Below the pieces are notes generated by a model. The model was given only the letters and a program-made list of their open reading frames with translations, was not told where the DNA came from and made no database searches. Positions 1 through 42,656 of a DNA stretch of 64,000 nt are shown piece after piece (the stretch's first letter is position 1; the number at the start of each line of letters is the position of its first letter). A program made the position numbers and the translations under genes. The stretch comes from a virus, in the IMG/VR virus record IMGVR_UViG_3300029286_000013. One strand, 5' to 3'.

Positions 1-249
1 GAGATTCCATTTATCACTAACTATGGGGTCAGCAAGAGCTTCATTATATACTTCCTCACTCTCCCACAACATGGTAGTAATGAGTGTTAGTCCATCACTT
101 GATTGTTGACGATCTAAGAATAGTAATTTAGATGTTTGTTTATATGTAGCGTCCCAGTGACTTCTAAATGCATCAGAATCTTCCCCCATGACAGAATAAA
201 ATTCTACGTCAACTGAAGGTCTTGTATGTTTTGCTGTTATTTGGTACAT
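1..249 (-). CDS. Partial ORF (3' end runs off window), ABM/dimeric alpha-beta-barrel-like; paralogue of the N-terminal domain of 259..1185
   Basis: Not in ORF track. My translation is MYQITAKHTRPSVDVEFY...LTLITTMLWESEEVYNEALADP, which aligns with MITITKKHTRPSVDIPFF...LTISTTTVWESQEAFAEYFSDP. AGGA RBS upstream; GATAAATA at 270-277. Confidence 0.75.
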   Translation of the reverse strand, partial: MYQITAKHTRPSVDVEFYSVMGEDSDAFRSHWDATYKQTSKLLFLDRQQSSDGLTLITTMLWESEEVYNEALADPIVSDKWNL

Positions 250-258
250 TCTTTTTTC

Positions 259-1185
259 CTATAATACAGTATTTATCATAGTTACAGTATTGCCGGTAAC
301 ATCTTTTGTAACATCGGCATAGCCTTCTTTTATAAAGGCTTCGGGATAGTAACTTTTAATCAAATCTGCTTGATGTTGGCCTTGAATTTGACCTTTCCAT
401 TGTACTGCCGCACTAGTCATTTCTTCTGGATTTTCCCAACGTTGGAATGCTAAAATAACAAACCCATTACCAGTACCTGCATCTTCATCACCGCCGTGAT
501 ACCCACCGTTAACTAACTTAGTACTAAGTCCTCCCCATGTTCTACTTGTATTAGTTATTGATCCTTCGTCAGGCTTCCAAGTTCCTCCGCCCCCCATTGT
601 CATAGTAATCACTTCCATTCTAGGATGTGAGTGTTTCCAGATGTACATGTTTGGATACTCAATATAAAATTCAACTTGATAGTTACCTTTTCTGAATAAA
701 CAAATAGCCACAGCATCGTCACTACGTATGACATTTGCATTCCAAGGAATCATCATGGGCATTCTTTGTTCACAATACCAATCTACAAAATCTTCGAGGC
801 TAGACCAATCATCTGGAATTTTAACATCTTTAAAATAATCCTTAGCATCAACTTGTTTCCATGTGGGTCTAATGAATCCAGCATCTGATGTTGAACTTGA
901 TACTATACCATTTATTTGCTCATACTCAGTACTGATTTTTGTAAAGTTTTCTACACAAAACGGATCACTAAAATATTCAGCAAAAGCCTCCTGTGATTCC
1001 CATACTGTCGTAGTAGATATAGTCAACTGATCCTCTGACATTGTTCTATCAAATCTCACTAGTTTACCAGTATCTATATAATTTGCTTTTAGATACGATC
1101 CGTATTCAGGTCTGACAAGCTTAGTCTGATAAAAGAATGGAATATCAACGCTAGGTCTCGTATGCTTCTTTGTAATAGTTATCAT
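259..1185 (-). CDS. Two-domain protein: ABM-like N-domain plus cupin-like C-domain
   Basis: WESQEAF motif typical of ABM barrels; HSHPRME...H cupin metal motif; GAGGA RBS. Confidence 0.5.
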   Translation of the reverse strand: MITITKKHTRPSVDIPFFYQTKLVRPEYGSYLKANYIDTGKLVRFDRTMSEDQLTISTTTVWESQEAFAEYFSDPFCVENFTKISTEYEQINGIVSSSTSDAGFIRPTWKQVDAKDYFKDVKIPDDWSSLEDFVDWYCEQRMPMMIPWNANVIRSDDAVAICLFRKGNYQVEFYIEYPNMYIWKHSHPRMEVITMTMGGGGTWKPDEGSITNTSRTWGGLSTKLVNGGYHGGDEDAGTGNGFVILAFQRWENPEEMTSAAVQWKGQIQGQHQADLIKSYYPEAFIKEGYADVTKDVTGNTVTMINTVL

Positions 1186-1195
1186 TTTAATTTCC

Positions 1196-2119
1196 TCATA
1201 TGTGTGTAAAATGTTTATTTCCCAATATTTCTAATTTCAATTGGTCGGGCGTTCTGTCTACAGTTTGCCTGTACGGCAATCCGTTATACTTTTTCTGCAA
1301 AAAAGATTCAAATTCATTAACTAGTGAATCAGTTTTTTCAAATCCTGTTTGTTTCTTGCGCTCAATAAGATCGGGATACGCTTCCCTATATCCAATAAGT
1401 TTAGTTGAGTTGGAACCCAACTTACCATAGTATTTATCGTTGACTAGTTTGTTAAACCATGTTGTTTTCATATAAGACAATACTAATCCAGGTGTCCACT
1501 TAAACCATTCAGCGATTCCGGGTTTATTAATCTGTCTTAAGAACTTTGACCAACCAATGTCATGTTCCCAACAACGCATCATCCACGTTCCTTTAATAGA
1601 ATAATCGTCATTGGTGCGCCAAGGTGATAAGTCACTTGCTCCCATTATCGGGAAGCCGTCTACTAGTTCTAATAGTTTACAATACGGCAATGCTCTAGGT
1701 CTATCAATCTGTGACAGTTCAGACATTCTTTCTGCGTCATTCTCGTAAAATTTTTGTAGATTGAAATCTAATATTTTATAGGGCACATTTAATATAGAAC
1801 ACACGGTTACTGCATAACTCACATCATAAATGTTATAGTCATTTTCATATCTTGCTATTAGAATCTCAGGATTAGCACCTATTTCTAAGAACGCACGTAA
1901 CATTATCTCACTATCGATACCACCACTGAATAATATTACAGGTGTTGAATCACAATGGTCAATAGTGCTACGTGCGGCATTAAATAATTCATCTTTGAAA
2001 TTACTTACCCTTCCGTTATATTGTCCAAAATTAGTATTAAACTTGTCATTGGATGTTTGTCTGCCAAATAGTCTATCATCATAACTCCAACTATACCAAT
2101 TATTCTCACTTGTGTACAT
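1196..2119 (-). CDS. PP-loop (N-type) ATP pyrophosphatase, asparagine-synthase-C/QueC-like
   Basis: LFSGGIDSE PP-loop and C-terminal RKKQTGFE (asparagine synthase RxKxGF-like). Start moved to MYTSENN to reduce overlap with the upstream gene. Confidence 0.6.
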   Translation of the reverse strand: MYTSENNWYSWSYDDRLFGRQTSNDKFNTNFGQYNGRVSNFKDELFNAARSTIDHCDSTPVILFSGGIDSEIMLRAFLEIGANPEILIARYENDYNIYDVSYAVTVCSILNVPYKILDFNLQKFYENDAERMSELSQIDRPRALPYCKLLELVDGFPIMGASDLSPWRTNDDYSIKGTWMMRCWEHDIGWSKFLRQINKPGIAEWFKWTPGLVLSYMKTTWFNKLVNDKYYGKLGSNSTKLIGYREAYPDLIERKKQTGFEKTDSLVNEFESFLQKKYNGLPYRQTVDRTPDQLKLEILGNKHFTHI

Positions 2120-2537
2120 GCTTATATGTCCCAAATATCATATCCCATAACGGGGTAAATAGTCCGTAATTTATTTCACCAGAGTGGTGCATCAAATGCC
2201 ATTTGCCACTAGTAAGAACAGGTAGATTAAATTGTCTATCATGTTCAATTGTTTCTTGTATGAATGCCGCCCATACATAATATAATACGCTAATCCACCA
2301 TTGATTGGTTATCAATGAAAAAAGCAAAGTAGGAATGACTTCAGTTATCCACAAGTCTATTGTACTAGTCCAATCATCATTAAATAGTAATAGGTTAGAC
2401 CAATGCCACTTAGTAGAATGATTAAGTATAAACTGGTGATGATGCAGATGAATTTTACGAATCACCGGCACTATATGACCAACTCTATGAATCCAATACA
2501 GTATTAGAGTCCATAGAAAGAAATATAAAACAATCAT
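2106..2537 (-). CDS. Fatty acid hydroxylase / sterol desaturase family membrane protein
   Basis: His boxes YWIHRVGH, HLHHH, EH, HLMHH followed by NYG...LWD..FGTY; hydrophobic segments. Confidence 0.85.
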   Translation of the reverse strand: MIVLYFFLWTLILYWIHRVGHIVPVIRKIHLHHHQFILNHSTKWHWSNLLLFNDDWTSTIDLWITEVIPTLLFSLITNQWWISVLYYVWAAFIQETIEHDRQFNLPVLTSGKWHLMHHSGEINYGLFTPLWDMIFGTYKHVHK

Positions 2538-3310
2538 TACGTTTTTATCAATTTAATAATCAATCCAGATATATCCAATTCCCACCATTGTTTTCTAAAA
2601 GTATAATCTTTGGGAAATCTATGATGATTGTTATGCCATGCCTCACCCCAACTAGGGATTGCAAACAACCAACTGTTAGTACTATCATCATTTAAATTGT
2701 ATGTTCTGTACCCGCTTATCCAATTGGGTTTGTGTCCGGCTATGTTAACAACATTACTCATTATACCTGTTAATACTGCCGGCGCCCAATGACCAAATAT
2801 CATCAACCAAACACCACCTATTGCAAATAATAACAAGCTCCAGGCTGCAATGATTACAAAGTAGTATCTATGTACAAATTGCTGAAATTTATCACTAATC
2901 AGTCGGCGCATTCTCCACTTAGTATCTTGATTAATATTTGCTTCATACTCAAGCAAGAAGATACTCCATCCTTTATATTTAGGAGAGTGTGGATCATTAA
3001 TAGTGTCACTTTTTAAATGATGATTAATGTGTATTGCTACCCACGCAATCGCACTACCTGTGCCTCCCAAAGCACCAAATATAGTAAACAATTTGGTCAA
3101 CCACTCGTTTGATTTATAACTATTGTGAGTTAATTTTCTATGGAACGTTACAACAATACCTAAACACCCGTATACAAAATATCCTGCCAACACAGCCCAA
3201 AACATACTGATAGTTAACGGATAGTATAGTAGTCCCATTAATGTCCCTAGTAATCCTAGTAGTACGAATAATTGAACTCCTTTAGTGCTTGATGATAGAT
3301 AGTGTGTCAT
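2537..3310 (-). CDS. Delta-9-type fatty acid desaturase
   Basis: HRKLTH, HINHH..SD...DPHSP and GEAWHNNHH boxes; TM helices. Confidence 0.92.
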   Translation of the reverse strand: MTHYLSSSTKGVQLFVLLGLLGTLMGLLYYPLTISMFWAVLAGYFVYGCLGIVVTFHRKLTHNSYKSNEWLTKLFTIFGALGGTGSAIAWVAIHINHHLKSDTINDPHSPKYKGWSIFLLEYEANINQDTKWRMRRLISDKFQQFVHRYYFVIIAAWSLLLFAIGGVWLMIFGHWAPAVLTGIMSNVVNIAGHKPNWISGYRTYNLNDDSTNSWLFAIPSWGEAWHNNHHRFPKDYTFRKQWWELDISGLIIKLIKT

Positions 3311-3318
3311 ATATGTAT

Positions 3319-3828
3319 TTATAGATTATTATCAATGATATATTGTTTAACTTCATCATATGATGCAGGTAACGGTACTCCTATACTTAGTAAATATCTG
3401 TATTCACTGAAGTTAAAAATTGTATGAAATTTATGCACGTTTAACAAAGTATACTTATCTTGCTCGTATACTAATTTAGTTACATCAACCATTCGCCCAT
3501 TAGCGGCCGGATTACCAAACATTGTTAAACTATCGTAACCGTCTATTAACATATTTATGCAACAATTTCTTCCTTGATGGTCAATATGCCATTTGTAACA
3601 AGTATTTGGTTTAAATCTATAGATTGCCAATTTTTGTTGGCAATCAAATTTCTCAATAAATCTAACTAAATTAGGTTCTGTCTTAAAATCATCTATTGTT
3701 AACAATAAACAATTCATCTCAATAATGTCTTTCCAATCACTTTCCGTTGATTTGGATATTATGTCACGCAAATACTGTGTCAACGTTGATGTGTTTTGCA
3801 ATCTATAAAATAATTTTACACTATCCAT
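3319..3828 (-). CDS. Small Fe(II)/2OG-oxygenase-like (DSBH) protein
   Basis: WHID...FHTIFN..RYLLS (HxD...H...R). Confidence 0.6.
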   Translation of the reverse strand: MDSVKLFYRLQNTSTLTQYLRDIISKSTESDWKDIIEMNCLLLTIDDFKTEPNLVRFIEKFDCQQKLAIYRFKPNTCYKWHIDHQGRNCCINMLIDGYDSLTMFGNPAANGRMVDVTKLVYEQDKYTLLNVHKFHTIFNFSEYRYLLSIGVPLPASYDEVKQYIIDNNL

Positions 3829-4409
3829 GCATAATCCTTATACTTAGATGCGCTTTCTTTAATTAAAGAAGAATGATTTTTCTTTAATGGCCCGTATACT
3901 AATAACAATCCTTTAGTCTTTGTATTATCATAAATTGCAGAATGCTGTAGAGGGTAGTCTTTATAATAAAATGAATTTGTATCTGTTGGCAATGTCAATT
4001 TTCTTTGTTGATTATTGTACGTGAACTCCCATATGGGGTCTGTGTAAGTGTTCCACAATACTGCTCTAAATTCGTCACGCGGAGATGCATAATCAGAATG
4101 CGATGGTACTGGTTCGGTATTTTCCATAACTCTAATTAATCTAGGCTCTAGTGGTACGTGTTTAAAAATCTGTTCTAGTAAGTTATCAATAACTGCACAC
4201 TTAGGTGCTATTACAGCATCATACAATGAATACAATCTTGTGTTTCCTGTATTGAATATGTCAACCCCCCTAAGCATATCCTTGACAGTATTATTATGAT
4301 TACTTGTCACTTTGTTTATAAACTGAGAATGAGTATTCCAAACATCCCACCATTCATCCCAATTGTTTGGTTCTATTTTTGGTATGTCTAACGGTGTGTA
4401 TATTATCAT
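3816..4409 (-). CDS. Small Fe(II)/2OG-oxygenase-like protein
   Basis: SHSD...LQHSA....K facial-triad pattern. Confidence 0.5.
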   Translation of the reverse strand: MIIYTPLDIPKIEPNNWDEWWDVWNTHSQFINKVTSNHNNTVKDMLRGVDIFNTGNTRLYSLYDAVIAPKCAVIDNLLEQIFKHVPLEPRLIRVMENTEPVPSHSDYASPRDEFRAVLWNTYTDPIWEFTYNNQQRKLTLPTDTNSFYYKDYPLQHSAIYDNTKTKGLLLVYGPLKKNHSSLIKESASKYKDYAWIV

Positions 4410-5167
4410 TTTTTTATTATTGATATAATTGTCATCACTGGATCATACTCTTTATCTTTTATTTGAGTTGAACACTCTTTGGGATTAGCATGATGATTGT
4501 TATGCCACGCTTCACCTAATATAAAGGGGAATAACCATATGTTATTTCTACTATCATCTTTGGTTACAAAATTTCTATACCCACTAGTATGACCAAAGTA
4601 ATTAAAATTGTTTTGACTTAAGTGAACCAAAAATACAGGAAGTATCCAAATGAAATACAACAACTCTAAATTGATTACCGCTAGTACAAATACAAATGAC
4701 AAGATTATAGCCATATACCATTTGTGTATGAACAATTGTTCTTTGGTCATCAAGTCTTTTACTAAAAAGATTTGCATAGGTTCTTCTTCTTGTTTCTTAT
4801 AATGACCAAAACCAAAAATCTTGTATCCTAAAAATTTGGGGCTGTGTGGATCTTTTTCTGTATCAGAATATGCATGGTGTTTTCTATGTAGATATGACCA
4901 TCCTAGCGGGCTACCCCGACCAGATAGCACAGCCAACAAAGTAAAAAACCATTTTAGCATATCATTTTTAAATTCAAATGATTTGTGTGAGAAGTAGCGA
5001 TGCAATGTCATCCAATTACCCAAAATATTAAGTATATAAAAACTAAATAAGGTGATTGTTAAATTGGGTATAGTAAACATGGATAGATTAACTATCCCCG
5101 CAAATACACTGAGTGTGATTCCCAAAGTTAGTAGATTGATGTTGCGAGATGTTGATCCTAGTTGCAT
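4406..5167 (-). CDS. Delta-9-type fatty acid desaturase
   Basis: HRYFSH, HRKHH.YSDTEKDPHSP, GEAWHNNHH; AGGAGG RBS. Confidence 0.92.
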   Translation of the reverse strand: MQLGSTSRNINLLTLGITLSVFAGIVNLSMFTIPNLTITLFSFYILNILGNWMTLHRYFSHKSFEFKNDMLKWFFTLLAVLSGRGSPLGWSYLHRKHHAYSDTEKDPHSPKFLGYKIFGFGHYKKQEEEPMQIFLVKDLMTKEQLFIHKWYMAIILSFVFVLAVINLELLYFIWILPVFLVHLSQNNFNYFGHTSGYRNFVTKDDSRNNIWLFPFILGEAWHNNHHANPKECSTQIKDKEYDPVMTIISIIKK

Positions 5168-5182
5168 ATTATTCCCTCCTTG

Positions 5183-5198
5183 TATTTATTAATAAATA
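5183..5198. promoter_or_regulatory. Bidirectional palindromic T4-type late promoter pair (TATTTATTAATAAATA)
   Basis: Perfect 16-bp palindrome with ATAAATA on each strand, between divergent genes. Confidence 0.7.
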
Positions 5199-5204
5199 AT
5201 CACT

Positions 5205-6698
5205 ATGCAAGTTATTCTATTCACAGACGTTGCCGATACTTTAGGCTATGGTAAATACGCAGGTACATACAAAGTTGCCACTGAGGTGAGGAACGCAGGT
5301 TATACTTGCCAAGTTGTTGATTTGTTCAGTAAATACACATACCAAGAACTTGAAAATATTTTAAACAAGTTTGTAACATCAGAGACAGTTCTTATTGGGT
5401 TCAGTTGTACACTTATGGAAAGACGGGTCGGGTTATACGGTAGTAAGAATTATACTGTCTACAATTTTGGTAGACCTGATAGTGAAGTAGAAAGTTTACT
5501 TGACTATGCCAAAACAAAAAATTCAAAGATTAAAACAGTCGTGGGCGGTGCTCGTATTAATATGAATGTCGGCTGGAAGTTCATTGATTATGCTGTAGTT
5601 AATAAAGGTGACATTGCTATTGTCAAACTAGTTGAACATTTACTATATGGTAACAATTTACCATTAGTTAGAACATCACCGTGTAAAGTTATTGATGGAA
5701 GTAGTAGTGATTATTTTTATAGCCAAGACCAGTTTGCTACAAGTAAAATTATATATCAACCTCAAGATATCATATTATCGGGCGAGTGTTTGCCAATTGA
5801 AGTGGCGCGTGGGTGCATCTTTAGTTGTGCATACTGTCACTTTGACTTGATTGGCAAAAAGATTGGTGATTGGCAAAAGGCAGAAGATTCTTTACGTGAT
5901 GAACTTATGCGTAATTATGAGTTGTATGGAACAACTCATTATATGGTATCAGATGAGTTAATTAATGAGAGTCTACCTAAGATGGAATTAGTACATAAGG
6001 TATTTACTTCATTGCCATTCAAAATAACATACACAAGTTATGCACGACTAGACTTGATATCAGCGTTCCCTCAAATGCGTGATATGATACAAGAAAGTGG
6101 TGCTGTTAGTATTGCGTTTGGCATTGAAACAATGAATGATGTTGCAGGTAAGAAGATTGGTAAAGGCTTAGGTAAAGTCAGAACTAAAGCGGCATTGGCA
6201 CACTGTGCTGAAACTTGGAAAGGTAAGATTGTAACAAGCAGTCAATTTATTGTCGGCTTACCTGGAGAGAATGAAGCAAGTATGCGTGAAACTGTTGATT
6301 GGTTAGTTAGCGATGAATGTGATTTGGATATATTTGGATTCTTACCGTTATTCATTCGACCAGAAGAAGATGGTCGATCTACTAGTAAGATTGATAGAGA
6401 CCCTGCAAAGTTTGGTTATGTGTTACATGAAGACAAACCTTGGCAAGGTGAGCATATGAACTTTCAACAAGCATGTCGCTTAGTCTCTAGGTTGTATAGT
6501 GATCCTAGAGTACAGAAAAAAATCAAGTTTTCTGCGGCTACATGGATGGGTAGATTGTTGAACTTAGGTTATAATATTGAAGATATCTTTAGCATGATTA
6601 ATAACAGAAATCTTGCAAAGAATGAGGTTGTTAGTATTATTAATGAAAAATCAGAAATTAAAAAACAACTTTATTATGAAGAATTAATGAAGATTTAA
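5205..6698 (+). CDS. B12-binding-domain radical SAM enzyme
   Basis: EVARGCIFSCAYC (CxxxCxxC), N-terminal Rossmann-like domain (GFS...VVGGA), FGIET, FIVGLPGE. Confidence 0.85.
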   Translation: MQVILFTDVADTLGYGKYAGTYKVATEVRNAGYTCQVVDLFSKYTYQELENILNKFVTSETVLIGFSCTLMERRVGLYGSKNYTVYNFGRPDSEVESLLDYAKTKNSKIKTVVGGARINMNVGWKFIDYAVVNKGDIAIVKLVEHLLYGNNLPLVRTSPCKVIDGSSSDYFYSQDQFATSKIIYQPQDIILSGECLPIEVARGCIFSCAYCHFDLIGKKIGDWQKAEDSLRDELMRNYELYGTTHYMVSDELINESLPKMELVHKVFTSLPFKITYTSYARLDLISAFPQMRDMIQESGAVSIAFGIETMNDVAGKKIGKGLGKVRTKAALAHCAETWKGKIVTSSQFIVGLPGENEASMRETVDWLVSDECDLDIFGFLPLFIRPEEDGRSTSKIDRDPAKFGYVLHEDKPWQGEHMNFQQACRLVSRLYSDPRVQKKIKFSAATWMGRLLNLGYNIEDIFSMINNRNLAKNEVVSIINEKSEIKKQLYYEELMKI

Positions 6699-7240
6699 TC
6701 CTTAAGCAAAAATATAGGATCTTTGTCAAATCCCAAAGATAATGTTATTCTAGGTGAGAGTTCTGACATAAGAACCGCATGCGGTTCGTTAACTAATACT
6801 ACTGTCGGTGCATCTATTTCTACACTATCTGCTGTTCTTATTCCGGCAATTCCTGATAGTATCCAGGCACCTATAGATGTTTTACTATTGAATGTTCGTT
6901 TGTTAAATTCGCCACCTGAATAGAATACAGTTTTGGAACCTTTACAATTTAATAGTGGTAAATTTATTCTTGCAGACTGGGGGTACCCATCGACATGTAT
7001 CGGACTGTGACTATTTTGTGTCATAACGTATGCCACAGCCCAATTGCAAGTCAATCCATATTTAGCAAACCCGGCATCTAATTTAGGACAGTATTTTTTA
7101 AACGCAGTAACATCTAATGGATGATACGTTGTATTAGTTAACCTATAATAGATTTCAGGCTTATGTATTTTTAGATAGTCAACTGCATCACTGACGATAT
7201 CATCATAAAAATCTATTTCTATCTTTTTGTAATATTGCAT
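6695..7240 (-). CDS. Small Fe(II)/2OG-oxygenase-like protein
   Basis: IHVD...RINLPL...PHAV...RITLS; similar to 3319..3828. Confidence 0.6.
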   Translation of the reverse strand: MQYYKKIEIDFYDDIVSDAVDYLKIHKPEIYYRLTNTTYHPLDVTAFKKYCPKLDAGFAKYGLTCNWAVAYVMTQNSHSPIHVDGYPQSARINLPLLNCKGSKTVFYSGGEFNKRTFNSKTSIGAWILSGIAGIRTADSVEIDAPTVVLVNEPHAVLMSELSPRITLSLGFDKDPIFLLKD

Positions 7241-7242
7241 AA

Positions 7243-7258
7243 CGTATTTATAAATACG
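7243..7258. promoter_or_regulatory. Bidirectional late promoter, palindrome CGTATTTATAAATACG
   Basis: Exact T4 late consensus TATAAATA on both strands, each 4 nt from an ATG. Confidence 0.8.
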
Positions 7259-7260
7259 GG

Positions 7261-7860
7261 ATGTCCTATACTATTTTAGCTTATTCCGATATGACACTGC
7301 CTCAACGTGGTATCTTCTTTGATTTTTTAAAAGAGGCTCGAAAAGAAACAACACAGCCTGCACATGAAAACATGTGGGATAATGACTGGAAAAATAAAAA
7401 CAATACTCTACCGTACTTATTAGAGTGTACTAACAGATTCACCTCAGGTGGAAAATATAATGTAGCATTTGACGGAGATCAAATAGTAGGATGTAGCGGG
7501 GTATACACTAGTGCATTTTGCTCTGAGTTAGCAATCGCAGGAACCAGAACTTGGATTCATAAAGATTATAGAAACAAGTCTATAGCTAGAGAATATTTAT
7601 TGCCAGCCGAGAAGGCTTGGGTTATTGAAAACAACTTTAAAGCTATCGCTATCTGTTTCAATGATTATAATAAGAACTTGACTAAAATTTGGAAACGCCT
7701 ACGTTTAGGAGAAAAAAGAACTCCTAGACAATCACACCATATGTTTTTTAACGGAGTAAATGCGCTGGAGTTCCCCGTTACTATTCAATATACAAAGCAA
7801 TGGATCATGTATGAAAAACTAGACCCATCATTTGATTTTGATTGGGATAGTATGAAATAA
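7261..7860 (+). CDS. GNAT-fold acyltransferase
   Basis: IVGCSGV...RTWIHKDYRNKSIA (motif A-like), FNDYN. Confidence 0.65.
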   Translation: MSYTILAYSDMTLPQRGIFFDFLKEARKETTQPAHENMWDNDWKNKNNTLPYLLECTNRFTSGGKYNVAFDGDQIVGCSGVYTSAFCSELAIAGTRTWIHKDYRNKSIAREYLLPAEKAWVIENNFKAIAICFNDYNKNLTKIWKRLRLGEKRTPRQSHHMFFNGVNALEFPVTIQYTKQWIMYEKLDPSFDFDWDSMK

Positions 7861-7862
7861 CT

Positions 7863-9347
7863 TTACTCTTTCTTACAAAGAAACGTAACAAAACCTAAAT
7901 CAGCATGTATCACTTCTACTGTTTTAAATCCCACCATATGTAATTTATTAGTATACCAGCCTAAGGTAACACTATGCATTATACCAATTAAATCTTTTTC
8001 TTTCTGCTGAATATATTCTTCAGACACTCCGTTTTTTCTTTTAAAATCATAATACTCACGCTTAACAATTTCTGACTGTTGTAATTTATCAGTAAGTATA
8101 AGATAACCATAATTTGATAATGAGTTATAGATATCAGTCAGATAGGAATACTTGTCCTGAATAAAATGCACAGTCCAATTAGCTAAAATAAAATCATAAT
8201 TGTTCTTAGGGAAAGAGTCACTTTCAATAACTAAATCAGGAAAAATACTATTATCAATCATTGCACGACTGTTATCTACTCCGGTAACATTAGTATAACC
8301 TTCATCAATAAATTGTTTCATTGTATATCCCAATGCACTACCAACATCAATTATTCTAGCGTCTTTTTTTAAATTTTTATTGGCAAATTCAACGCACATA
8401 TCAATAACAGTATGATAAGACGGTATATGTGCTTCTGCTTCAAGCTGAAATCGTTTAGCTACTGAATCATCAAATACCCAAGATGTTTTATTAATATTAA
8501 CACTATCACCTTTAATTATAGTATCTTTTAATGTTTCAGTTACATTATTGCCTCGAAAATATCTAGCAATATACCTCAAAGGTCCTTGTTTATCATTTTC
8601 AAACTTATGATATTGCTCACGGAAAGGATCATAACTATTTTCAAATTTTTCAGGAAGTAATGTTTCCTCTGTCCTATTAAAAGAATTAGTAGACATTATT
8701 ATATCTAGTGCATTTATTGAAATCCTACTAGCAATACCTTCATAATAAATATTTTTCGTTGTATCATCTACACTCCTAACCATTGGCTGACTTGAAGTAA
8801 CTAATATTTCACCGTATTTTTTAACAGAATCATTAGGATCAATATTTTTAGCACCAATTGAACCGTATCCAGGAGTAGAGTCTGGATAGTTAATTGTTTC
8901 TATTACTATAGCTTCTTTAGTTATTTTACATAGTTTATCAAGTATCGATACCATATTCAAGAAACAGTAAATAACTCCGGCTGCTAAAACATAATCATAT
9001 TTTATATTTTGTGCTATTTTTTCATCTAAAAAATCTTCAATCTCTTGGTGTACAATTAAAAATTTATTAGAGTCCCAATATTTTGATAAAAGTATATTAC
9101 TATGGTCAATATAGTAGTTCTGTAACTCTACACCTGTGTAGTGTTTTGCCCCGTTAGTTAATGCATAATGGCCTGCGGCGCCAAGCGCACTACCTAAATC
9201 TAAAATATTTTTATCTTCTATTAGATTTTTAGGTAGTTGAACTTGACATTTTTTATATACAGTTTCTATAGTAGTAGGATGGTATACTCGGGTCTGTCTA
9301 CAATCTAATTCAATAAATTCTGTTGCAATTTCAAATATATTAGTCAT
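7863..9347 (-). CDS. Tandem SAM-dependent methyltransferase fusion (CmoB-like N-domain plus CmoA-like C-domain)
   Basis: Two motif-I sequences (ILDLGSALG, IIDVGSALG). C-domain WVFDDSVAKRF..HIPSY, GVDNSRAM, NWTVHF follows the CmoA pattern. Confidence 0.7.
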   Translation of the reverse strand: MTNIFEIATEFIELDCRQTRVYHPTTIETVYKKCQVQLPKNLIEDKNILDLGSALGAAGHYALTNGAKHYTGVELQNYYIDHSNILLSKYWDSNKFLIVHQEIEDFLDEKIAQNIKYDYVLAAGVIYCFLNMVSILDKLCKITKEAIVIETINYPDSTPGYGSIGAKNIDPNDSVKKYGEILVTSSQPMVRSVDDTTKNIYYEGIASRISINALDIIMSTNSFNRTEETLLPEKFENSYDPFREQYHKFENDKQGPLRYIARYFRGNNVTETLKDTIIKGDSVNINKTSWVFDDSVAKRFQLEAEAHIPSYHTVIDMCVEFANKNLKKDARIIDVGSALGYTMKQFIDEGYTNVTGVDNSRAMIDNSIFPDLVIESDSFPKNNYDFILANWTVHFIQDKYSYLTDIYNSLSNYGYLILTDKLQQSEIVKREYYDFKRKNGVSEEYIQQKEKDLIGIMHSVTLGWYTNKLHMVGFKTVEVIHADLGFVTFLCKKE

Positions 9348-9354
9348 ATATTAT

Positions 9355-9870
9355 TTATAATGCAATTTTACCTACTGCATTTATAACTGCGGCAATCTTA
9401 CCGACTGCTTGTAGTTGCTGTACAGTCATTCCTTCATTCTTAAGAATGTCGTAATGTGACTTAACACAATGATTACATTTACCAACAATACTAGCACATA
9501 GTGCATACATCTCAAACTTTAGTTTTGAAACTCCACCGTGTGTGGCATATGCTTGCATACGTAATCCTGGGGGTAATCCTTTAAGGTTAGCATCACCTGT
9601 CATATCAACGAATGGATAATAAACGTTGTTCATACCCATCAATGCGGCCGCGGTCTTTGCGGCTTCACGTTCAGGGGTGCCCATAAGAGGGCCGTTCATC
9701 CCAATCTCAAGTGCTAATTCACCATTACCTGCACTAATCGCAGCCGCTAATGCACAGGCGTGTGCATCAACTTCATCTAGACCACTGCGATTAATGACCG
9801 CATCTAAGTTTAACTTAATATCCTTAGCGTGGTCTGGAATAGATTCCTTAACCTGGTCTACCCAACTCAT
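9355..9870 (-). CDS. ahpD: Alkyl hydroperoxide reductase AhpD
   Basis: AKDIKLNL, MNNVYY, GKCNHCVKSH (CxxC); directly follows ahpC. Confidence 0.92.
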   Translation of the reverse strand: MSWVDQVKESIPDHAKDIKLNLDAVINRSGLDEVDAHACALAAAISAGNGELALEIGMNGPLMGTPEREAAKTAAALMGMNNVYYPFVDMTGDANLKGLPPGLRMQAYATHGGVSKLKFEMYALCASIVGKCNHCVKSHYDILKNEGMTVQQLQAVGKIAAVINAVGKIAL

Positions 9871-10427
9871 AGTGTTGCACCACCAATAGCACGATTACAT
9901 GGGCATAGTTCGCCAGTTTGCAATGCGTCAAGAACACGCAATGTTTCTTCTGGGTTACGACCAACATCTAAGTTGTTAACAGTAATGTGTTGAATAACGT
10001 TTTGTGGGTCAACAATGAATGTTGCACGTAATGCCGCACCTGCTGGGGCATAGAATACTCCCAACTGTTCAATTAGACTTACGCTACCACGTTCTTCACC
10101 TGACTGATGACGAGCGGTATCAGCAAACTGATGATGTGTAATCTTACGCAAATCATCGTGACTTTTTTGCCAAGCTACTTTGCAGAACTCATTGTCTGTT
10201 GAACCTGTTAGTAATACTGCATCACGATCAGCAAAGTCTTGTGTCAACTTATCATATGCTACAATCTCGGTTGGACATACAAATGTAAAGTCCTTAGGGT
10301 AGTAAACAATAATTTTCCACTTACCTTCAAATGATTTTTCTGTGATTGTATAGAATGCATCTTCTGGTTGTCCTGGGCGAACACCTGTTATTACGAATGC
10401 TGTTAATTTATCTCCGACTGTTTTCAT
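9867..10427 (-). CDS. ahpC: Peroxiredoxin AhpC
   Basis: YPKDFTFVCPTEI peroxidatic motif, GELCPCNR resolving Cys. Confidence 0.96.
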   Translation of the reverse strand: MKTVGDKLTAFVITGVRPGQPEDAFYTITEKSFEGKWKIIVYYPKDFTFVCPTEIVAYDKLTQDFADRDAVLLTGSTDNEFCKVAWQKSHDDLRKITHHQFADTARHQSGEERGSVSLIEQLGVFYAPAGAALRATFIVDPQNVIQHITVNNLDVGRNPEETLRVLDALQTGELCPCNRAIGGATL

Positions 10428-10500: not shown

Positions 10501-10803
10501 TTAATCTTCAAATGAGCTTAAACCATTACTGTGTTTATCAGATACCTTTTCAGTATCCTGGTACAATCGTTTCTCTTGTGCAGTTAATGTATCTTTATGA
10601 GTTCTACGAGGATTACCGCATAAAGGACATTGTGGATTGCCACAATCCATAGCATGATGTTTTGCTAATCTATGCGGTTCTTTAATTGCTTTGTCTTTAT
10701 TTGTTAAACCATGTTGTTTAGCAATACGAACTTGTCTTGCAATTGCTACATCATTTTTATGACGGCGATGGCTATTTATGTATTTTGCGATTTCATTGCT
10801 CAT
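10501..10803 (-). CDS. Basic hypothetical protein with Cys/His cluster
   Basis: HHAMDCGNPQCPLCGNPRR; Arg/Lys-rich. Confidence 0.6.
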   Translation of the reverse strand: MSNEIAKYINSHRRHKNDVAIARQVRIAKQHGLTNKDKAIKEPHRLAKHHAMDCGNPQCPLCGNPRRTHKDTLTAQEKRLYQDTEKVSDKHSNGLSSFED

Positions 10804-10812
10804 GATAATATT

Positions 10813-11451
10813 CTATCGTATATCTTTAAATTTGTCAATACAATACTGAGTTTTATTTCTCCATTGTATCAATATTTCTTTCGAAAACTGTTCCATATTT
10901 ATATGTGTAAACATACTTATTTTGGTTATCAATTCTTCAATATTTCCCTTAAATAATTCTTTCCAAGAAATATCTAGTAGAGATTCTGTGCTTTGAATCG
11001 CACTAAAATATATATGATGATTACGTATGTTAGTAGCGTATGATTCTTTGGTATATTCTAACGATGTTGTTGCACAATCAATTATCCATTTTCCATAATA
11101 TACATTGGCTATTTCTTCTGCATCGTCTAGGTCATATACTATTCTTATAGATTTTTTAAAAGTATTATTAATTAAATTAATATCTTTCATATGGCAGGTT
11201 ACATAGCCTGGTTTTTCTATATAGGGGTTAGGTAATTGAGATAACAAATGGTCAATCTTATCCTGATCAGGCCAATCAAATCCTTTAGCGTAGGGTTCTA
11301 AATCCTTCATACCTTTATGTGAGTTCCCGTGTTCACTAAGATTTAATACATTTTTTATATTTCTCTTGGCACTTACTATAAAATGGCATAAAAAATGTCC
11401 GCCGGTTCCTCCCATATAAGTTATAGGTATTATATCCTCAGTGGGCAACAT
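10813..11451 (-). CDS. Hypothetical protein, possibly P-loop/sulfotransferase-like
   Basis: ITYMGGTGGHFL near the N-terminus; ISWKELF near the C-terminus. Confidence 0.4.
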   Translation of the reverse strand: MLPTEDIIPITYMGGTGGHFLCHFIVSAKRNIKNVLNLSEHGNSHKGMKDLEPYAKGFDWPDQDKIDHLLSQLPNPYIEKPGYVTCHMKDINLINNTFKKSIRIVYDLDDAEEIANVYYGKWIIDCATTSLEYTKESYATNIRNHHIYFSAIQSTESLLDISWKELFKGNIEELITKISMFTHINMEQFSKEILIQWRNKTQYCIDKFKDIR

Positions 11452-11827
11452 GTCTCTGTTTATAATCGTTTACTGCGGCTTTGATGGCGTCTTCCGCAAG
11501 GATTGAGCAATGGATTTTGACTGGGGGGAGTGCAAGTTCCTCTGCGATTTGAGAGTTTCTGAGTTCGGCAGCTTGGTCAAGTGTTTTCCCTTTGACCCAT
11601 TCAGTGACAAGACTTGAGCTAGCAATAGCCGACCCGCACCCATACGTTTTAAATTTGGCATCTGTGATTAATCCTGTTAGTTTATCTACTTTAATTTGTA
11701 ATTTCATTACGTCCCCGCAAGCCGGGGCTCCTACCATACCCGTACCTACATCGTCATCATCTTTTGCAAAACTACCGACGTTTCTTGGGTTTTCATAGTG
11801 GTCTACTACTTTTGCGCTATAAGCCAT
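11438..11827 (-). CDS. iscU: Fe-S cluster scaffold IscU
   Basis: DHYENPRNVG, GAPACGDVM, FKTYGCGSAIASSS, LPPVKIHCS. Confidence 0.97.
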   Translation of the reverse strand: MAYSAKVVDHYENPRNVGSFAKDDDDVGTGMVGAPACGDVMKLQIKVDKLTGLITDAKFKTYGCGSAIASSSLVTEWVKGKTLDQAAELRNSQIAEELALPPVKIHCSILAEDAIKAAVNDYKQRHVAH

Positions 11828-17715: not shown

Positions 17716-18787
17716 TACTATCAGTCATTACACCAATTACATAATTAGTTGATTCATTTTCTTGTAATGCAGTTTGTTTCTTACTTGTATCAACGTGTTT
17801 GTTGAACCAAGGAATAGGAGTTGTTTTAGGTGCAGGACTATTATATCTAATACCAATTTCTTTTAATGCGGATACAGCCGTGTAATCAACAAAGTCTTTC
17901 AACACAGTTGCATTCAATCCAATAACTGGACCCATCTTAAACAAGTAGTCAGCCCATTCTTTTTCTTCACGTATCACATCCAAGTAAAGTTGATAGACCT
18001 CAGCTTCACATTCTTGTTTAATTGCGGCGAAGCGGCTGTCTTCTTTTACTACTTGATTAATAAGGTAGGCAGTCCAGCCTTTATGGAGAAGTTCATCTTG
18101 GAGAATTAAACTGATAATATTGCCATTACCAATAAAGATTTTGTTCTCAACCATTGCTAAACTTGTAGCGAATGATACCATAAAGCGGAATGCTTCCAAT
18201 GCGTAACTGGCGTGTAATGCCATATAAATTGCTTTAATGTGTTCTTTTTCGTTCACATCTTGACCTAACTCTTTGCGGCAATTAACTTTGTGTAGTTCGT
18301 CATAGTATCTACCGACACTACTTGCCATGTCTACAATTTCTTTTGTATCGTGTATAGTATTGAATACATCTTTAGGTACATTATAGATATTACGAATGAT
18401 GTGACTATAGCTACGACTATGAATATTAGTCTCAAAGAAACTCCAGTTGTATATCAATGCTTCTAGTTCTGGTAATGATACAACAGGTGTGAACACTTGG
18501 CTTGGAGCACGACCTTGTAAACTATCTAATGCAGTTTGACGTAATAGGTTACTAGTAAAGATATGCCTAACTGCATCACTTGCTTCTTTAAAGTCATTAG
18601 CATCTTTTGTTAATGATACTTCTTCTGGAACCCAGAAGAAACCACGGGCCGTTGTTTCAAAGTCTGCAATCTTTTTATATTTAACCTCTTCAAATCTTTG
18701 GATGGTTACGGGACCTTCCGGGTCCAAAAACATTTTTCTATTCAAATAATCTGTCTTTGTATTTAGGTTATATTGTGCGTGTGACAT
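17687..18787 (-). CDS. nrdB: Ribonucleotide reductase class Ia beta subunit
   Basis: FFWVPEEV, LDSLQGR, ETNIHSRSY (radical Tyr), LEAFRF, DELLH, QENESTNY. Confidence 0.97.
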   Translation of the reverse strand: MSHAQYNLNTKTDYLNRKMFLDPEGPVTIQRFEEVKYKKIADFETTARGFFWVPEEVSLTKDANDFKEASDAVRHIFTSNLLRQTALDSLQGRAPSQVFTPVVSLPELEALIYNWSFFETNIHSRSYSHIIRNIYNVPKDVFNTIHDTKEIVDMASSVGRYYDELHKVNCRKELGQDVNEKEHIKAIYMALHASYALEAFRFMVSFATSLAMVENKIFIGNGNIISLILQDELLHKGWTAYLINQVVKEDSRFAAIKQECEAEVYQLYLDVIREEKEWADYLFKMGPVIGLNATVLKDFVDYTAVSALKEIGIRYNSPAPKTTPIPWFNKHVDTSKKQTALQENESTNYVIGVMTDSIEYDELPNI

Positions 18788-19464
18788 TATGCTAATTCCT
18801 TCTGCTTTCGTTTATTTTCTTCTCTATTTCTTGCCGCTATTTTCATTTTTTCTTTTGTTTCCTCTGACATTTTTTTGCCCTTACGTGCGATTGACATTTT
18901 AGATTTTATTTCATCTGACATTTTTTTACCAGTCCATGGACTATTTGGCACACGTTTTTTTAGTTTTTCTCTTGTTTCTTCGCTAATCGGAGGTCTATTT
19001 TTTGCGACTTCAGCCATTTTCAATTTAGTTTCATCTGTAAAGGTTCTTCCCTTTTGAGACATAGACATTTTTGCTTTTGTTTCTTTTGTACGGGTTTGAC
19101 CAATCCTTTTAAGTGCTGCCAATTTTTGTAACTCTGGATTTTTTCTATTTGGATTGTTATCTCCGGACATAGATTCTGCATATTGTCTACGTAACCATCC
19201 ATAGGCTTTATTAGTTCTTTTACCATTATTAATCATTGAGCCAGTGGTCATATTCATTGTGGCATATAATAACTTTTGATTTTTTGGATATATTTTACAT
19301 AATAACAAGTGGGCAAGATAATGCTCCTCAGGATATAATTCAACTATGTTTTCTTTGTCATCTGTTCCACCCAAACAACGAGGGAGGATGTGATGTTTTT
19401 CAACATACCCAATTTTTTTGGTTTTGTTACTTATTAACCTAATATATATTGCTTGATAGTTCAT
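18787..19464 (-). mobile_element. mobE: Free-standing HNH homing endonuclease with NUMOD3 repeats (MobE-like)
   Basis: MNYQAIY...EKHHILPRCLGG.DDKEN...EEHYLAH, repeated ETK.KMS. Lies between nrdA and nrdB like T4 mobE, with TAATG overlaps at both ends. Confidence 0.85.
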
Positions 19465-36191: not shown

Positions 36192-36899
36192 TTATATAGT
36201 ACGTATTTTAGCTAGCCTAAAAAATTTAAAGATTGATAACCACATATAACCCATATCAAACTCAAACCATTTTCTACTTAGCTTAGGATTTGCTGGTTCT
36301 AAATGATGATTGTTATGTAGTTCTTCTCCACCTATTATTATTCCCCAAGGACTGATATTACGACTATGGTCTTTAGTCTCTCCATTACGATACCCTATCC
36401 AATGTCCTATGCCATTGATTACGCCGGCTGCCCAGAATGGAATCCATATCATTTGTATAGCCCAAATTAGTATTCCCCACCATGAAAAACAAAGTAAATT
36501 TACAAGCAATAACAAAACAATTCCTAAACGACTATGCTTACTGTATACATTTTGTTCCACCCAATCATCAGGTGTTCCTACACCATATGAATTTACCATT
36601 GTTTTATCTTTACTAGCAGTATGGTATAACAATGCTCCTTTGAACAATACATTGTATATTCCAAAAACGTGAGGTGTATGTGGATCTCCCTCAACATCAC
36701 TATATCTATGATGTTTGCGATGTATTGCTACCCATTGTTTAGTAACCATACCGGTTGTCAACCACAACCAGAATCGCATAAAGTGACTGAGTATAGGATT
36801 AAATTGTATTGCTTTATGTGCTTGACCTCTATGTAAGAATAGAGTAACACATACTATAGTGATGTGTGTAACTATTAAGGTATATAATAATTCGTTCAT
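36192..36899 (-). CDS. Fatty acid desaturase, proteobacterial DesA-like
   Basis: TLFLHRGQAH, WVAIHRKHH..SD..GDPH, GGEELHNNHH, WFEFD.G. Confidence 0.93.
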   Translation of the reverse strand: MNELLYTLIVTHITIVCVTLFLHRGQAHKAIQFNPILSHFMRFWLWLTTGMVTKQWVAIHRKHHRYSDVEGDPHTPHVFGIYNVLFKGALLYHTASKDKTMVNSYGVGTPDDWVEQNVYSKHSRLGIVLLLLVNLLCFSWWGILIWAIQMIWIPFWAAGVINGIGHWIGYRNGETKDHSRNISPWGIIIGGEELHNNHHLEPANPKLSRKWFEFDMGYMWLSIFKFFRLAKIRTI

Positions 36900-36917
36900 T
36901 AGATATTTATCACCAAC

Positions 36918-36975: not shown

Positions 36976-37737
36976 TTATGCTATCTTACGCTTTTTGCCA
37001 CCAAGTTGCCAACCATCATCTAAGTAACTGTGTAGTGTGTCTTTCTTTACTTTCTTCTCGGTATTGTCTTTGTTGATACTTATGTTGCCTAATACTGCGT
37101 TGGCTACATTAGCTCCGTGTGTTTTAACTTTTGCTACACCTTTTTGTTTTACTGACCGTTTAATCTTTTCTTCTTCACTCATAGGACCTTTAGGTTTTCC
37201 CGTTGAAGCTAAACTTTGTTTTTGTCTAGTTTCTTCACTATGTGTATAACCTGCTCTACTTTCTTTCCATTTTGTAATTGTTTCTTCTGACTTAGGTGCT
37301 CTTTGTAATGCGGCATTTCTTAGATTTTCTCTATGTTCATCTGTTATCTCTACTCCACCTTTATTCCAAGGAACAAGGTTCTTAGACTTCATTAGTTTAG
37401 AATGATACTCCGCGTGTTCTATTCTATATTTTTCATAAACTCTTGCAGTAAAAATAGTTTGATATCTTTCTTGGTGTTCATTTTCTGCCCTCATCCCCAT
37501 TAGAGCATACACCATCTTATGATAGTATTCACCCTCAGTCATTTTTACTAATAGCCAATGACAAAGAAAATGTTCTCTACAAGACAAATATACTAGATTA
37601 CTTTTATCATTACTTCCTCCTAATGATTGAGGAATAATATGATGCCGTTCTCTACCTCGGGCTTTTTTCCAGCCTCGTTGAACTGCTTTCTCAATAGTTG
37701 AGAAGTATACTTTGGAATAGAATTTATTTGTGAACAT
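36976..37737 (-). mobile_element. Free-standing HNH homing endonuclease with NUMOD3 repeats
   Basis: ERHHIIPQSLGGSND.SNLVYLSCREHFLCH, HSEETRQK repeats. Start MFTNK is 5 nt after ATAAATA; the upstream ATG at 37764 is also possible. Confidence 0.85.
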
Positions 37738-37780
37738 AATAGTATTTATGCCAATACTTGACATTCCACTATTATATCAT

Positions 37781-41985: not shown

Positions 41986-42086
41986 TTGGTATTTCCTATA
42001 ATGTATTTATCACCGAAATGAATAAATAAAAGTGTAGTTCGCGGCTGGCAGGCCCAACTACTCTAATGCTTAAAAGAGCAATCAGT

Positions 42087-42656
42087 ATGAATATTTATCT
42101 ATATAAGAAAACTCACAACATAACCGAGTTACAGTATTTAGGCAAAACAACAAAAGATCCATTCAAATATAAAGGATCAGGTGACTATTGGGTTTCACAT
42201 ATCAAAAAACATGGGTATGATGTCACTACTGAAATCATTAAAGAATGTCAAACTAATGATGAAGTAAAATATTGGGGTTTGTATTACAGTAATTTATGGA
42301 ATGTAGTTGATGACCCAAATTGGGCTAACATGAGACCTGAAGAGGGTAGCGGCGGGGCTACTAGAACCGGGACAACACAATCAAGTAATATGAAGGAAAA
42401 GGTTAGTGGACAAAATCATTATACTAAAAAGAATGGTTATGATTTAACTAATCATCATAACAAAGAATGTGACAAAAGAGGACCAAAAAATTCTAGATAT
42501 GATCCAACTATATATAAATTTGAAAATATACAAACTAATCAACTTGAATTCTCTACTAGATATAATTTAGCAAAAAAATATAATTTAAATTTAGGTAATC
42601 TAAGTAAAGTATTCAGCGGTAAATATAAACACTGCGGTGGTTGGAAACTTATCTAA
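42087..42656 (+). mobile_element. GIY-YIG (Seg-like) homing endonuclease with C-terminal NUMOD1-like domain
   Basis: IYLY..TH.IT.LQYLGKT...YKGSG, WAN..PE.G.GG, C-terminal HTH plus GGWK; antisense to the head operon. Confidence 0.82.

Follow-up and report, generated by a model that had tools for sequence, protein, structure and literature searches.

A candidate lipid- or acyl-amide-tailoring enzyme island with late-type promoter boxes in a lake jumbo phage

An accessory enzyme island

We analysed a 64,000-nt stretch of DNA (hereafter, the window) from IMG/VR virus record IMGVR_UViG_3300029286_000013, part of an uncultured, T4-distant jumbo myophage from a lake, and concentrated on the run of putative enzyme genes at its start. 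This region (1–9347) is most of a hyperplastic accessory island, and its sequence points to a kit of semi-autonomous units, most of them predicted to have their own gp55-type late promoter. The units are delta-9-type desaturases, a hydroxylase plus an amide-forming enzyme, a GNAT, soluble 2-oxoglutarate (2OG)-type oxygenases and ABM-like/cupin proteins. The reading we favour, with a confidence a little below even, is that the island tailors lipids or acyl-amides late in infection, either by remodelling lipids or by synthesising an amide-linked lipid.

On that reading, the targets of the enzymes late in infection would be hydrophobic acyl substrates of the host membrane. Acyl chains would gain double bonds and hydroxyl groups, a carboxylate would be adenylated and then amidated, an amine would receive an N-acyl group and a carbon a methyl group; the outcome would be remodelled membrane lipids or an amide-linked lipid. 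Hydrophobic acyl substrates are suggested by the membrane desaturases and hydroxylase, by a carrier protein in sister cassettes and by the adjacent AhpC/AhpD genes; amide bonds are suggested by the AsnB-type enzyme and the GNAT. Late timing, lipid substrates and any shared product are inferred.

The island comprises 12 back-to-back open reading frames (ORFs) with intergenic gaps of no more than 37 nt (Table 1). An earlier note on this DNA, made from its letters alone, had described 12 consecutive modifying-enzyme genes of named classes, and all were recovered by ORF calling, with family matches for several. The class names also largely stood, most having family, fold or motif support; the ABM label draws on a language-model lead and a non-significant PDB match. 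Megablast of positions 1–9400 against GenBank phages returned zero matches. The window, which has a G+C content of ~35%, also encodes portal, prohead protease, baseplate, ribonucleotide reductase and SbcCD proteins, and its major head protein (37848–39044) shares 66% identity with its counterparts in Vibrio phage 2.275.O and the Pseudomonas PA5oct group.

Membrane desaturases and hydroxylase

Des1 and Des2 matched PF00487 (6.7e-19 and 7.5e-20; 69–72 bits against a cut-off of 29.7), and the profile of the desaturase family aligned with mammalian SCD1 (4ymk) at 7.7e-31 over 235 profile positions. Nine histidines (H57, H62, H94, H97, H98, H193, H226, H229 and H230) and an SDxxxDPH motif were invariant in 13 desaturase sequences. 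All three desaturases of the window keep these nine histidines, which make up three His boxes plus extra di-iron ligands, and the family shows two hydrophobic hairpins, i.e. a four-helix hydrophobic pattern. By these features Des1–3 are predicted delta-9-type (SCD1/DesC-type) membrane desaturases. The equivalog level of NCBIfam NF049918 (DesA family) was missed, at 82–86 bits against 400 and over the first 230 of 385 profile positions only. Assignment of the short desaturases and the hydroxylase to the carotenoid enzymes CrtW/CrtZ was rejected, as the His boxes are of the delta-9 type (HxxxxH) and not HDxxH. We also dropped a desaturase match labelled 'Acinetobacter phage MD-2021a' (L057; CAKLQH020000002.1), which sits on clearly bacterial chromosome sequence, with trpBC, btuB and baeSR around the desaturase.

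Des3 follows a terminator-like hairpin and adjoins an HNH homing endonuclease gene (36976–37764). This is one of three homing-endonuclease-like genes (18787–19464, 36976–37764 and 42066–42656; phrog_655, phrog_314), one of which lies between ribonucleotide reductase subunit genes and two in the head module.

The small membrane hydroxylase matched PF04116 over profile positions 2–132 of 132 (2.3e-12; 47.9 bits against a cut-off of 31) and carries the His boxes HRVGH, HLHHH and HLMHH. The 3′ end of its gene is overlapped by the PP-loop gene over 14 nt, and translational coupling of the two genes is predicted from this arrangement. The most likely start of the PP-loop gene is ATG 2119, which its homologs favour, and not TTG 2134.

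An AsnB-type synthetase domain

Exhaustive structural comparison (VIA-align) of the modelled 307-aa PP-loop protein, which carries an SGGIDSE motif (predicted local distance difference test, pLDDT, 90), ranked AsnS (9b6c) highest at Z 15.8 over 265 aa, followed by AsnB (15.2), beta-lactam synthetase (13.6), carbapenam synthetase (12.4) and TsnB9 (11.3), the alignments from AsnS to carbapenam synthetase covering 245–265 residues. The next class after the AsnB type reached 9.6, and the lower PP-loop classes included NAD synthetase, LarE, TilS (8.5) and QueC (7.3). As modelled, the protein is an AsnB-type synthetase domain without the glutaminase domain: the N-terminal Ntn glutaminase domain is absent, the model aligning to the C-terminal part of its targets only (1ct9, 119–516). 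Such a fold suggests carboxylate adenylation followed by amide or lactam formation, in line with the adenylation/amidation step that the earlier note had placed in its pathway.

Sequence profiles were less informative. A PF00733 search gave no match for the window PP-loop protein and an E value of only 0.014 for a paralog in a related locus (L011), the sole Pfam/NCBIfam matches being weak ones to QueC and QatC. A QueC assignment was rejected (PF06508, 19.4 bits against 22; TIGR00364, 17.2 against 150; fold Z 7.3 against 15.8 for AsnS), as was TilS, considered since the phage has a tRNA-Ile2 (Z 8.5 with 1ni5, then 7.3 and 6.9; no Pfam/NCBIfam match). PDB sequence searches were of no use for the PP-loop protein, the GNAT, the radical S-adenosylmethionine (SAM) enzyme, the ABM-like and cupin domains, or the TGT-like protein described below. 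Tblastn of the PP-loop protein against GenBank phages returned zero matches, suggesting that no cultured phage carries this enzyme; its metagenomic homologs amount to at least 491 cluster representatives, the longest contigs reaching 359 kb.

Soluble enzymes and the case for protein substrates

An HxD..H triad (H104, D106, H156) was invariant across the Ox169, Ox197 and Ox181 groups. For Ox197 (model pLDDT 90), all 50 best structural matches were 2OG-Fe(II) oxygenases (Z 7.2–9.9), and the protein is modelled as having this fold. The 2OG support for Ox169 and Ox181 consists of the shared motif and alignment; Ox169 is probably a 2OG-Fe(II)/cupin-type oxygenase. Pfam searches of all 11 Ox-family members found nothing, and hhalign of the Ox profile against two Asp_Arg_Hydrox proteins of pelagiphage Mosig gave probabilities of 0.5–1.8%. 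The Ox181 profile found weak AspH-like relatives in Bdellovibrionota clusters, one of which reached PF05118 at E 0.0015, below the cut-off.

A0 is a paralog of the A1 N-domain, and this family has 2–4 copies per related locus. A1 joins the ~100-aa ABM-like module to a ~200-aa module with an HSHP..E (HxH..E) motif, and in relatives the two modules are separate, multi-copy genes. Pfam, NCBIfam and PDB sequence searches with A1 found no match. A language-model Atlas feature for ABM+Cupin (ABM+Cupin_2; score 0.84) and a non-significant PDB ABM match (E 1.4) provide a lead only for calling the A0/A1 N-terminus 'ABM-like' and the A1 C-domain 'cupin'.

The radical SAM enzyme matched PF04055 (2.3e-11; 44.6 bits against 29.5), its CxxxCxxC motif reading CIFSCAYC, and more weakly the B12-binding domain PF02310 (19.5 bits against a cut-off of 32.1). 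Its best NCBIfam matches, all far below cut-offs, were all class-B (PhpK family, 4e-17; TIGR04072, 2e-15; residues 20–367). The GNAT matched PF00583 (6.9e-5; 23.5 bits against a cut-off of 20.7) and fell in viral and GNAT clusters of the Atlas (score 0.95–0.97).

Several of these features would also suit protein or peptide modification, with virion fibres or the small ABM-like proteins as substrates and with Asp/Asn or Pro hydroxylation, N-acylation, C-methylation and side-chain amide or lactam formation as the chemistry. AsnB-type enzymes include lactam-forming cyclases, the Ox197 fold matches prolyl/aspartyl hydroxylases as well as any other, and the B12 radical SAM matches include C-methyltransferases of ribosomally synthesised and post-translationally modified peptides. 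The promoters are moreover of late type, the ~100-aa ABM-like proteins are multi-copy, and a comparable island adjoins tail-fibre genes in Mosig. We nevertheless give this explanation little credence. The three integral-membrane di-iron enzymes are of an acyl-chain type with no known protein substrates, sister cassettes include an acyl-carrier-like protein, no protease or leader-recognition gene was seen, and the island lies at least 12 kb from fibre-like genes.

Recurrence in related phages

Co-occurrence was scored in 25 distinct IMG/VR loci with a PP-loop homolog of at least 40% identity, counting genes within 8 kb. Desaturases occurred in 20 of the 25 loci (two or more copies in 18), the GNAT, hydroxylase and ABM-like families in 17 each, any Ox gene in 16 and the B12 radical SAM enzyme, with which the GNAT is often paired, in nine. 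The earlier note had set its proposal against random gene assortment across relatives; the island gene families recur together non-randomly in related phages.

In L058 a different version of the island stands at the same backbone site; it consists of a GNAT-like gene, a gene for an acyl-carrier-like protein of 72 aa, a PP-loop paralog with 28% identity and two desaturases. In both this and a second sister cassette (L009), the carrier-like protein (PF00550, 20.3 bits against 20.8) lies between the GNAT-like gene and the PP-loop paralog.

Related islands also had extra genes (L003:12026–12955, L003:14490–15440, L013:16256–17143, L009:13431–14570 and L013:13093–14286), which encode secreted TctC/Bug-type solute-binding proteins (PF03401, 3e-14), cytochrome P450s (PF00067, 3.5e-15) and a second, longer PP-loop family (~370–420 aa, SGGxDSH motif). 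Two short contigs labelled as a Nitrososphaerales metagenome-assembled genome (L018, L019; JANWKP01) carry the phage island at 64–66% identity and are probably mis-binned phage DNA. In L013 (2734–2810), ARAGORN called a tRNA with a CTA anticodon (tRNA-Pyl, amber-suppressor-like) beside the AhpD-like gene.

Counterparts in Bdellovibrionota

Cellular genomes were searched by a profile scan of one genome per species. PP-loop homologs with 26–32% identity came mostly from Bdellovibrionota, on long contigs, and in several of these genomes PP-loop paralogs were accompanied by desaturases, GNATs, weak AspH-like proteins, DUF6445 proteins and a B12 radical SAM enzyme. On a contig with groES/groEL, genes for 2OG-like, FA_hydroxylase-like, PP-loop and AspH-like proteins and two desaturases form one co-directional run, in which the FA_hydroxylase-like gene overlaps the PP-loop gene by 4 nt, as in the phage arrangement. 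A contig with PTS genes holds a PP-loop gene, an uncharacterized gene, a desaturase, an Ox181-like gene, a GNAT and a second Ox181-like gene. In a quick tree, with an arbitrary root and a long stem, the window-type phage PP-loop proteins formed one clade (support 99) nested among Bdellovibrionota. These predicted operons are the best argument for the families working together.

Late-promoter boxes and promoter-to-ATG fusions

The earlier note had placed ATAAATA boxes in the island and a gp55 gene in the window, and had deduced late expression. A motif search located the ATAAATA copies (270, 3316, 5183, 5192, 7245, 7250 and 9352), and the 302-aa product of 53453–54361 matched phrog_12791, 'sigma factor for late transcription', at 1.7e-74 and phrog_234 at 2.2e-20. 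The gp55 homolog adjoins SbcD and SbcC homologs, which we take to be the same neighbourhood as in T4. Another ORF suspected from synteny to be gp55 (48838–49416) was rejected as RusA-like.

Across the window both motifs were slightly depleted (ATAAATA, 27 copies against 37 expected; TATAAATA, 6 against 11.6). Yet 14 of the 27 ATAAATA copies lie in sense orientation at most 45 nt upstream of start codons, a 26-fold enrichment, and ATAAATA was the most position-enriched of all 7-mers just before start codons. The motif (G/C)ATAAATA or CTAAATA was also found 16–27 nt before the portal, two baseplate, one virion structural and three large fibre-like genes, with an AGGA-type ribosome site between box and start. 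A scan of the island for sigma-70-type promoters gave intragenic AT-rich matches only and none in the gaps. The box is predicted as a late promoter in the related Rak2-like jumbo phages CBB and GAP32 (PMC5259590). The late-promoter reading is therefore well supported at motif level, and the island genes would be transcribed late, as the earlier note had it.

The boxes differ in their distance from the start codon. That of A0 is followed by a Shine-Dalgarno sequence, as is AATAAATA on the minus strand, 15 nt before the Des2 ATG; AATAAATA on the plus strand ends 6 nt before the radical SAM ATG, and each box of the palindrome at 7241–7260 ends 4 nt before a divergent ATG, that of Ox181 or the GNAT. 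In all, the box ends 4–6 nt before the ATG of six accessory genes (Des1, radical SAM, Ox181, GNAT, methyltransferase and Des3), too close for a ribosome-binding site to fit between. This spacing is also seen in 12 related phage loci: of the 48 boxes that precede called ORFs there, 20 end at a distance of 4 or 5 nt from the ATG (mode 5), mostly before desaturase-sized and Ox197-sized genes.

In T4, the late box recognized by gp55, TATAAATA, occupies −13 to −6 (PMC1524935). With this geometry, a 5-nt spacing puts +1 on the A of the AUG, so leaderless late mRNAs are predicted, and the recurrence of this spacing in related phages suggests the same. Alternatively, the A/T-rich box may act as a Shine-Dalgarno-independent translation enhancer. 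Our literature search found no paper tying leaderless mRNAs to T4-type late promoters.

A separate, near-consensus sigma-70-type promoter (10803–10838; TTGACA-17-TAGAAT, 11 of 12 matches) stops 6 nt short of the ATG of a conserved 100-aa gene (10501–10803), which may give another leaderless transcript from a host-type promoter.

Shared pathway or landing site

The earlier note had proposed a mini biosynthetic pathway whose product may decorate the virion or remodel the membrane; either role would be a further step from the gene content. Part of the proposal held. Desaturases, GNAT, hydroxylase, PP-loop and ABM-like genes occur together in 17–20 of the 25 loci, and similar operons occur in Bdellovibrionota. 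What did not fit a single pathway was that most genes have their own predicted promoter, that some units occur alone and that the dual methyltransferase is CmoA-like and missing from nearly all related islands.

These same features would be expected if there were no shared substrate and the island were a landing site for unrelated one- or two-gene auxiliary functions, each with its own promoter; a desaturase adjusting membrane fluidity, a tRNA enzyme, an amide synthetase for nucleobases or sugars and a mix of oxygenases would be examples. The 12 genes have at least seven promoter-like boxes among them, gene content differs between relatives, the cassette at the same backbone site in L058 is a different one, and the CmoA-like methyltransferase is unrelated to lipid chemistry. 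We regard this explanation as unlikely, although a serious one, since the same five or six families recur together in most of the loci, are found in Bdellovibrionota chromosomal operons with the same hydroxylase-to-PP-loop overlap, and in sister cassettes hold a fixed order of GNAT-like, acyl-carrier-like and PP-loop paralog genes.

Several observations weigh against lipid or acyl-amide tailoring as a joint function. In a hyperplastic region, genes may come to lie together without sharing a function. Des3 is isolated in the structural module, near the major head gene, and has its own box, which suggests that a desaturase can also work singly. In five of the 25 loci the hydroxylase/PP-loop pair is the only part of the kit present and lies inside another operon; this shows the pair to be a self-contained unit and points to sugar or deazapurine chemistry, with a sugar carboxylate or a deazapurine as a possible substrate of the amide synthetase. 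No acyl-carrier-protein-like ORF or motif was found in the 64-kb window. Among the individual enzymes, the Ox197 match to AspH (Z 8.6) is tied with many other 2OG oxygenases, and a PDB profile search with the GNAT gave weak matches only (E 0.037).

The dual methyltransferase and nucleic-acid substrates

The C-domain of the dual methyltransferase (residues 274–486) matched CmoA in the PDB (4gek, 3.3e-15, residues 288–481; 1im8, 2.5e-14), and its N-domain is a generic class-I methyltransferase. The gene was not found in the first 16 related loci (L001–L016) and is known from only two further contigs, in each of which it immediately follows the AhpD-like CMD gene. This distribution suggests that it marks the edge of the conserved backbone and that the island is a replaceable unit existing in several versions. 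The enzyme probably serves tRNAs rather than the island chemistry.

The operon around the isolated hydroxylase/PP-loop pair (L069:2674–11404; also L061, L067 and L077) runs from a DSGGFQ (TGT-like) gene through Gfo/Idh/MocA, ADH-like and two uncharacterized genes to the pair, and continues with an uncharacterized gene, a cytidylyltransferase, a truncated UDP-sugar dehydrogenase and GTP cyclohydrolase I (FolE). The TGT-like protein is unannotated in PA5oct-type phages and had no PDB sequence match. As a candidate locus for the hypermodification of a base or sugar, this operon could use the PP-loop enzyme in place of QueC.

Both findings bear on the idea that the island modifies nucleic acids, the target being tRNA (U34 etc.) or a 7-deazaguanine-type DNA base and the PP-loop protein a QueC-like amide former. 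Besides the CmoA-like domain and the five loci that place the pair between the TGT-like and GTP cyclohydrolase I genes, this idea draws on the weak QueC/QatC matches, on oxygenases of the AlkB, TET and FTO type among the Ox197 fold matches and on a tRNA array that lies 3–8 kb downstream of the same island in three related contigs (L001, L003 and L009). For the window island it is nonetheless a decidedly improbable explanation. The PP-loop fold is AsnB-like and not QueC- or TilS-like, membrane desaturases and hydroxylases are implausible on nucleic acids, no TGT-like or FolE motif was found within the 64-kb window, tRNA arrays are lacking beside the bacterial counterparts, and the methyltransferase is missing from almost all related islands.

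Gene and promoter map

Table 1. Genes and promoter-like boxes of the window, with the evidence for each assignment
Feature	Position	Strand	Basis or remark
A0, first 83 aa of a ~105-aa stand-alone ABM-like small protein	1–249	-	runs off window
A1, ABM-like N-domain and cupin-like C-domain fusion	259–1185	-	
Putative PP-loop ATPase, asparagine-synthetase-type synthetase domain	1196–2119	-	SGGIDSE motif and fold
Putative small membrane di-iron hydroxylase (FA_hydroxylase / sterol-desaturase superfamily)	2106–2537	-	PF04116
Des1, predicted delta-9-type membrane desaturase, 257 aa	2537–3310	-	PF00487
Ox169, HxD..H protein	3319–3828	-	motif and alignment
Ox197, predicted 2OG-Fe(II) oxygenase fold	3816–4409	-	model and motif
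Des2, second predicted delta-9-type membrane desaturase, 253 aa	4406–5167	-	PF00487
Putative class-B (B12-domain) radical SAM enzyme	5205–6698	+	PF04055, CxxxCxxC
Ox181, HxD..H protein	6695–7240	-	motif and alignment
Putative GNAT-fold acyltransferase, divergent phage family	7261–7860	+	PF00583
Dual methyltransferase (two domains, one ORF)	7863–9347	-	C-domain CmoA-like
AhpD-like CMD protein (CxxC) and AhpC/TSA peroxiredoxin, backbone	9355–10427	-	PF02627 5.7e-11; PF00578 2.5e-19
Des3, third desaturase paralog, in structural module	36192–36899	-	phrog_35201 1.6e-19
gp55-type late sigma factor homolog, 302 aa	53453–54361	-	phrog_12791
GATAAATA box	270–276	-	20 nt before A0 start codon, then AGGA-type Shine-Dalgarno
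TATAAATA box	3316–3323	-	ends 5 nt before Des1 ATG; includes Ox169 stop codon
Back-to-back boxes, Des2 / radical SAM	5183–5198	both	
20-nt palindrome, two overlapping TATAAATA boxes	7241–7260	both	
TATAAATA box	9352–9359	-	ends 4 nt before methyltransferase ATG; includes CMD stop codon
GATAAATA box of Des3	36900–36910	-	ends 4 nt before ATG

The conserved backbone bordering the island consists of lysis genes, NifU and AhpC/AhpD, and the CMD/AhpC neighbours are often co-conserved with the island. The CMD (CxxC) protein, the AhpC/TSA peroxiredoxin and a NifU-like Fe-S scaffold (11438–11827) belong to this backbone; they may protect the oxygenases and the radical SAM enzyme from peroxide and supply them with Fe-S.

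Implications

If the kit makes or edits a lipid, it would represent a new phage route to alter the host envelope before lysis, or the phage's own particles, and would point to a further bacterial lipid or metabolite. A bolder and doubtful extension is that one lineage of giant freshwater phages and Bdellovibrionota share an undescribed pathway to an amide-linked, unsaturated, hydroxylated lipid, which the phages would make late and from leaderless mRNAs. Hydroxylase, AsnB-type synthetase, GNAT, delta-9 desaturases, 2OG oxygenases and the B12 radical SAM enzyme would jointly build this lipid, and the phage mRNAs would start exactly at promoter-fused AUG codons. The promoter-to-ATG fusions, if true, would allow leaderless late translation to be tested within T4-type regulation, and they could account for the movement of single genes between phages, each gene bringing along what it needs for its own expression.

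Lipid desaturases and isolated 2OG oxygenases have already been described from phages. The literature we searched held no description of a recurrent multi-enzyme kit on hundreds of giant-phage contigs with counterparts in predatory bacteria. New in the present analysis are the AsnB-fold ranking, the pair in a TGT-like operon, the Bdellovibrionota operons with the hydroxylase/PP-loop overlap, the placing of the methyltransferase outside the island and the conserved promoter-to-ATG spacing.

Comparison with known systems

Among the bacterial enzymes that tailor aminolipids, those of ornithine lipids comprise OlsB (GNAT-like), OlsC/LpxO (AspH family) and OlsD/OlsE (FA_hydroxylase family). The island can be likened to these Ols/LpxO systems by class only, in that an N-acyltransferase, 2OG/AspH-type enzymes and membrane di-iron hydroxylases there work on a single amide-linked lipid. 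An AsnB-type synthetase, delta-9 desaturases and a B12 radical SAM enzyme are all absent from ornithine-lipid pathways. The PP-loop enzyme shares the SGGxDS motif and overall fold (Z 12.4–15.8) with AsnB and the beta-lactam and carbapenam synthetases, but has 307 aa against about 500, lacks the glutaminase domain, is only 8–13% identical and is coupled to a membrane hydroxylase. For the dual methyltransferase, the C-terminal half can be aligned with CmoA from E. coli and H. influenzae (3e-15 and 2.5e-14), an enzyme of the cmo5U34 tRNA pathway, whereas the phage domain is fused to a second methyltransferase domain without a sequence match to CmoB.

As in T4, CBB and GAP32, the late-promoter core motif stands before structural genes, and the window has its own gene for a gp55 homolog. 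In contrast to T4-like coliphages, where accessory genes are mostly early (PMC1524935), the boxes here also serve accessory genes, and unlike T4 late promoters the fusions leave neither leader nor Shine-Dalgarno.

Comparable hypervariable enzyme islands are found in marine T4-like phages, among them the pelagimyophage 'host recognition cluster' and the island of Mosig EXVC030M (PMC7029224; MT647606); these are likewise mosaic blocks with Asp/Asn-hydroxylase-like oxygenases, a small desaturase, peroxiredoxin, GNAT, methyltransferases and radical SAM cassettes. The desaturase of this cultured pelagiphage is a homolog (99.7% hhalign probability). The Mosig island differs in abutting tail fibres, in having aminotransferases and a carbamoyltransferase and in the absence of a PP-loop enzyme homolog from Mosig.

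Finally, the DesC-like desaturases of cyanophages (vFAD; Roitman et al. 2017) are active and are thought to tune host membrane unsaturation during infection (PMC5776448). They share with the putative desaturases described here the nature of a phage-borne membrane acyl desaturase with HxxxxH / HxxHH / HxxHH boxes. Here, in contrast, the genes belong to a non-cyanophage jumbo phage, occur as three paralogs per genome (up to six in relatives), encode shorter proteins (235–257 aa) and are linked to hydroxylase, amide-synthetase, GNAT, 2OG and radical SAM genes, with Des1 and Des3 having a late-type box fused to the start codon.

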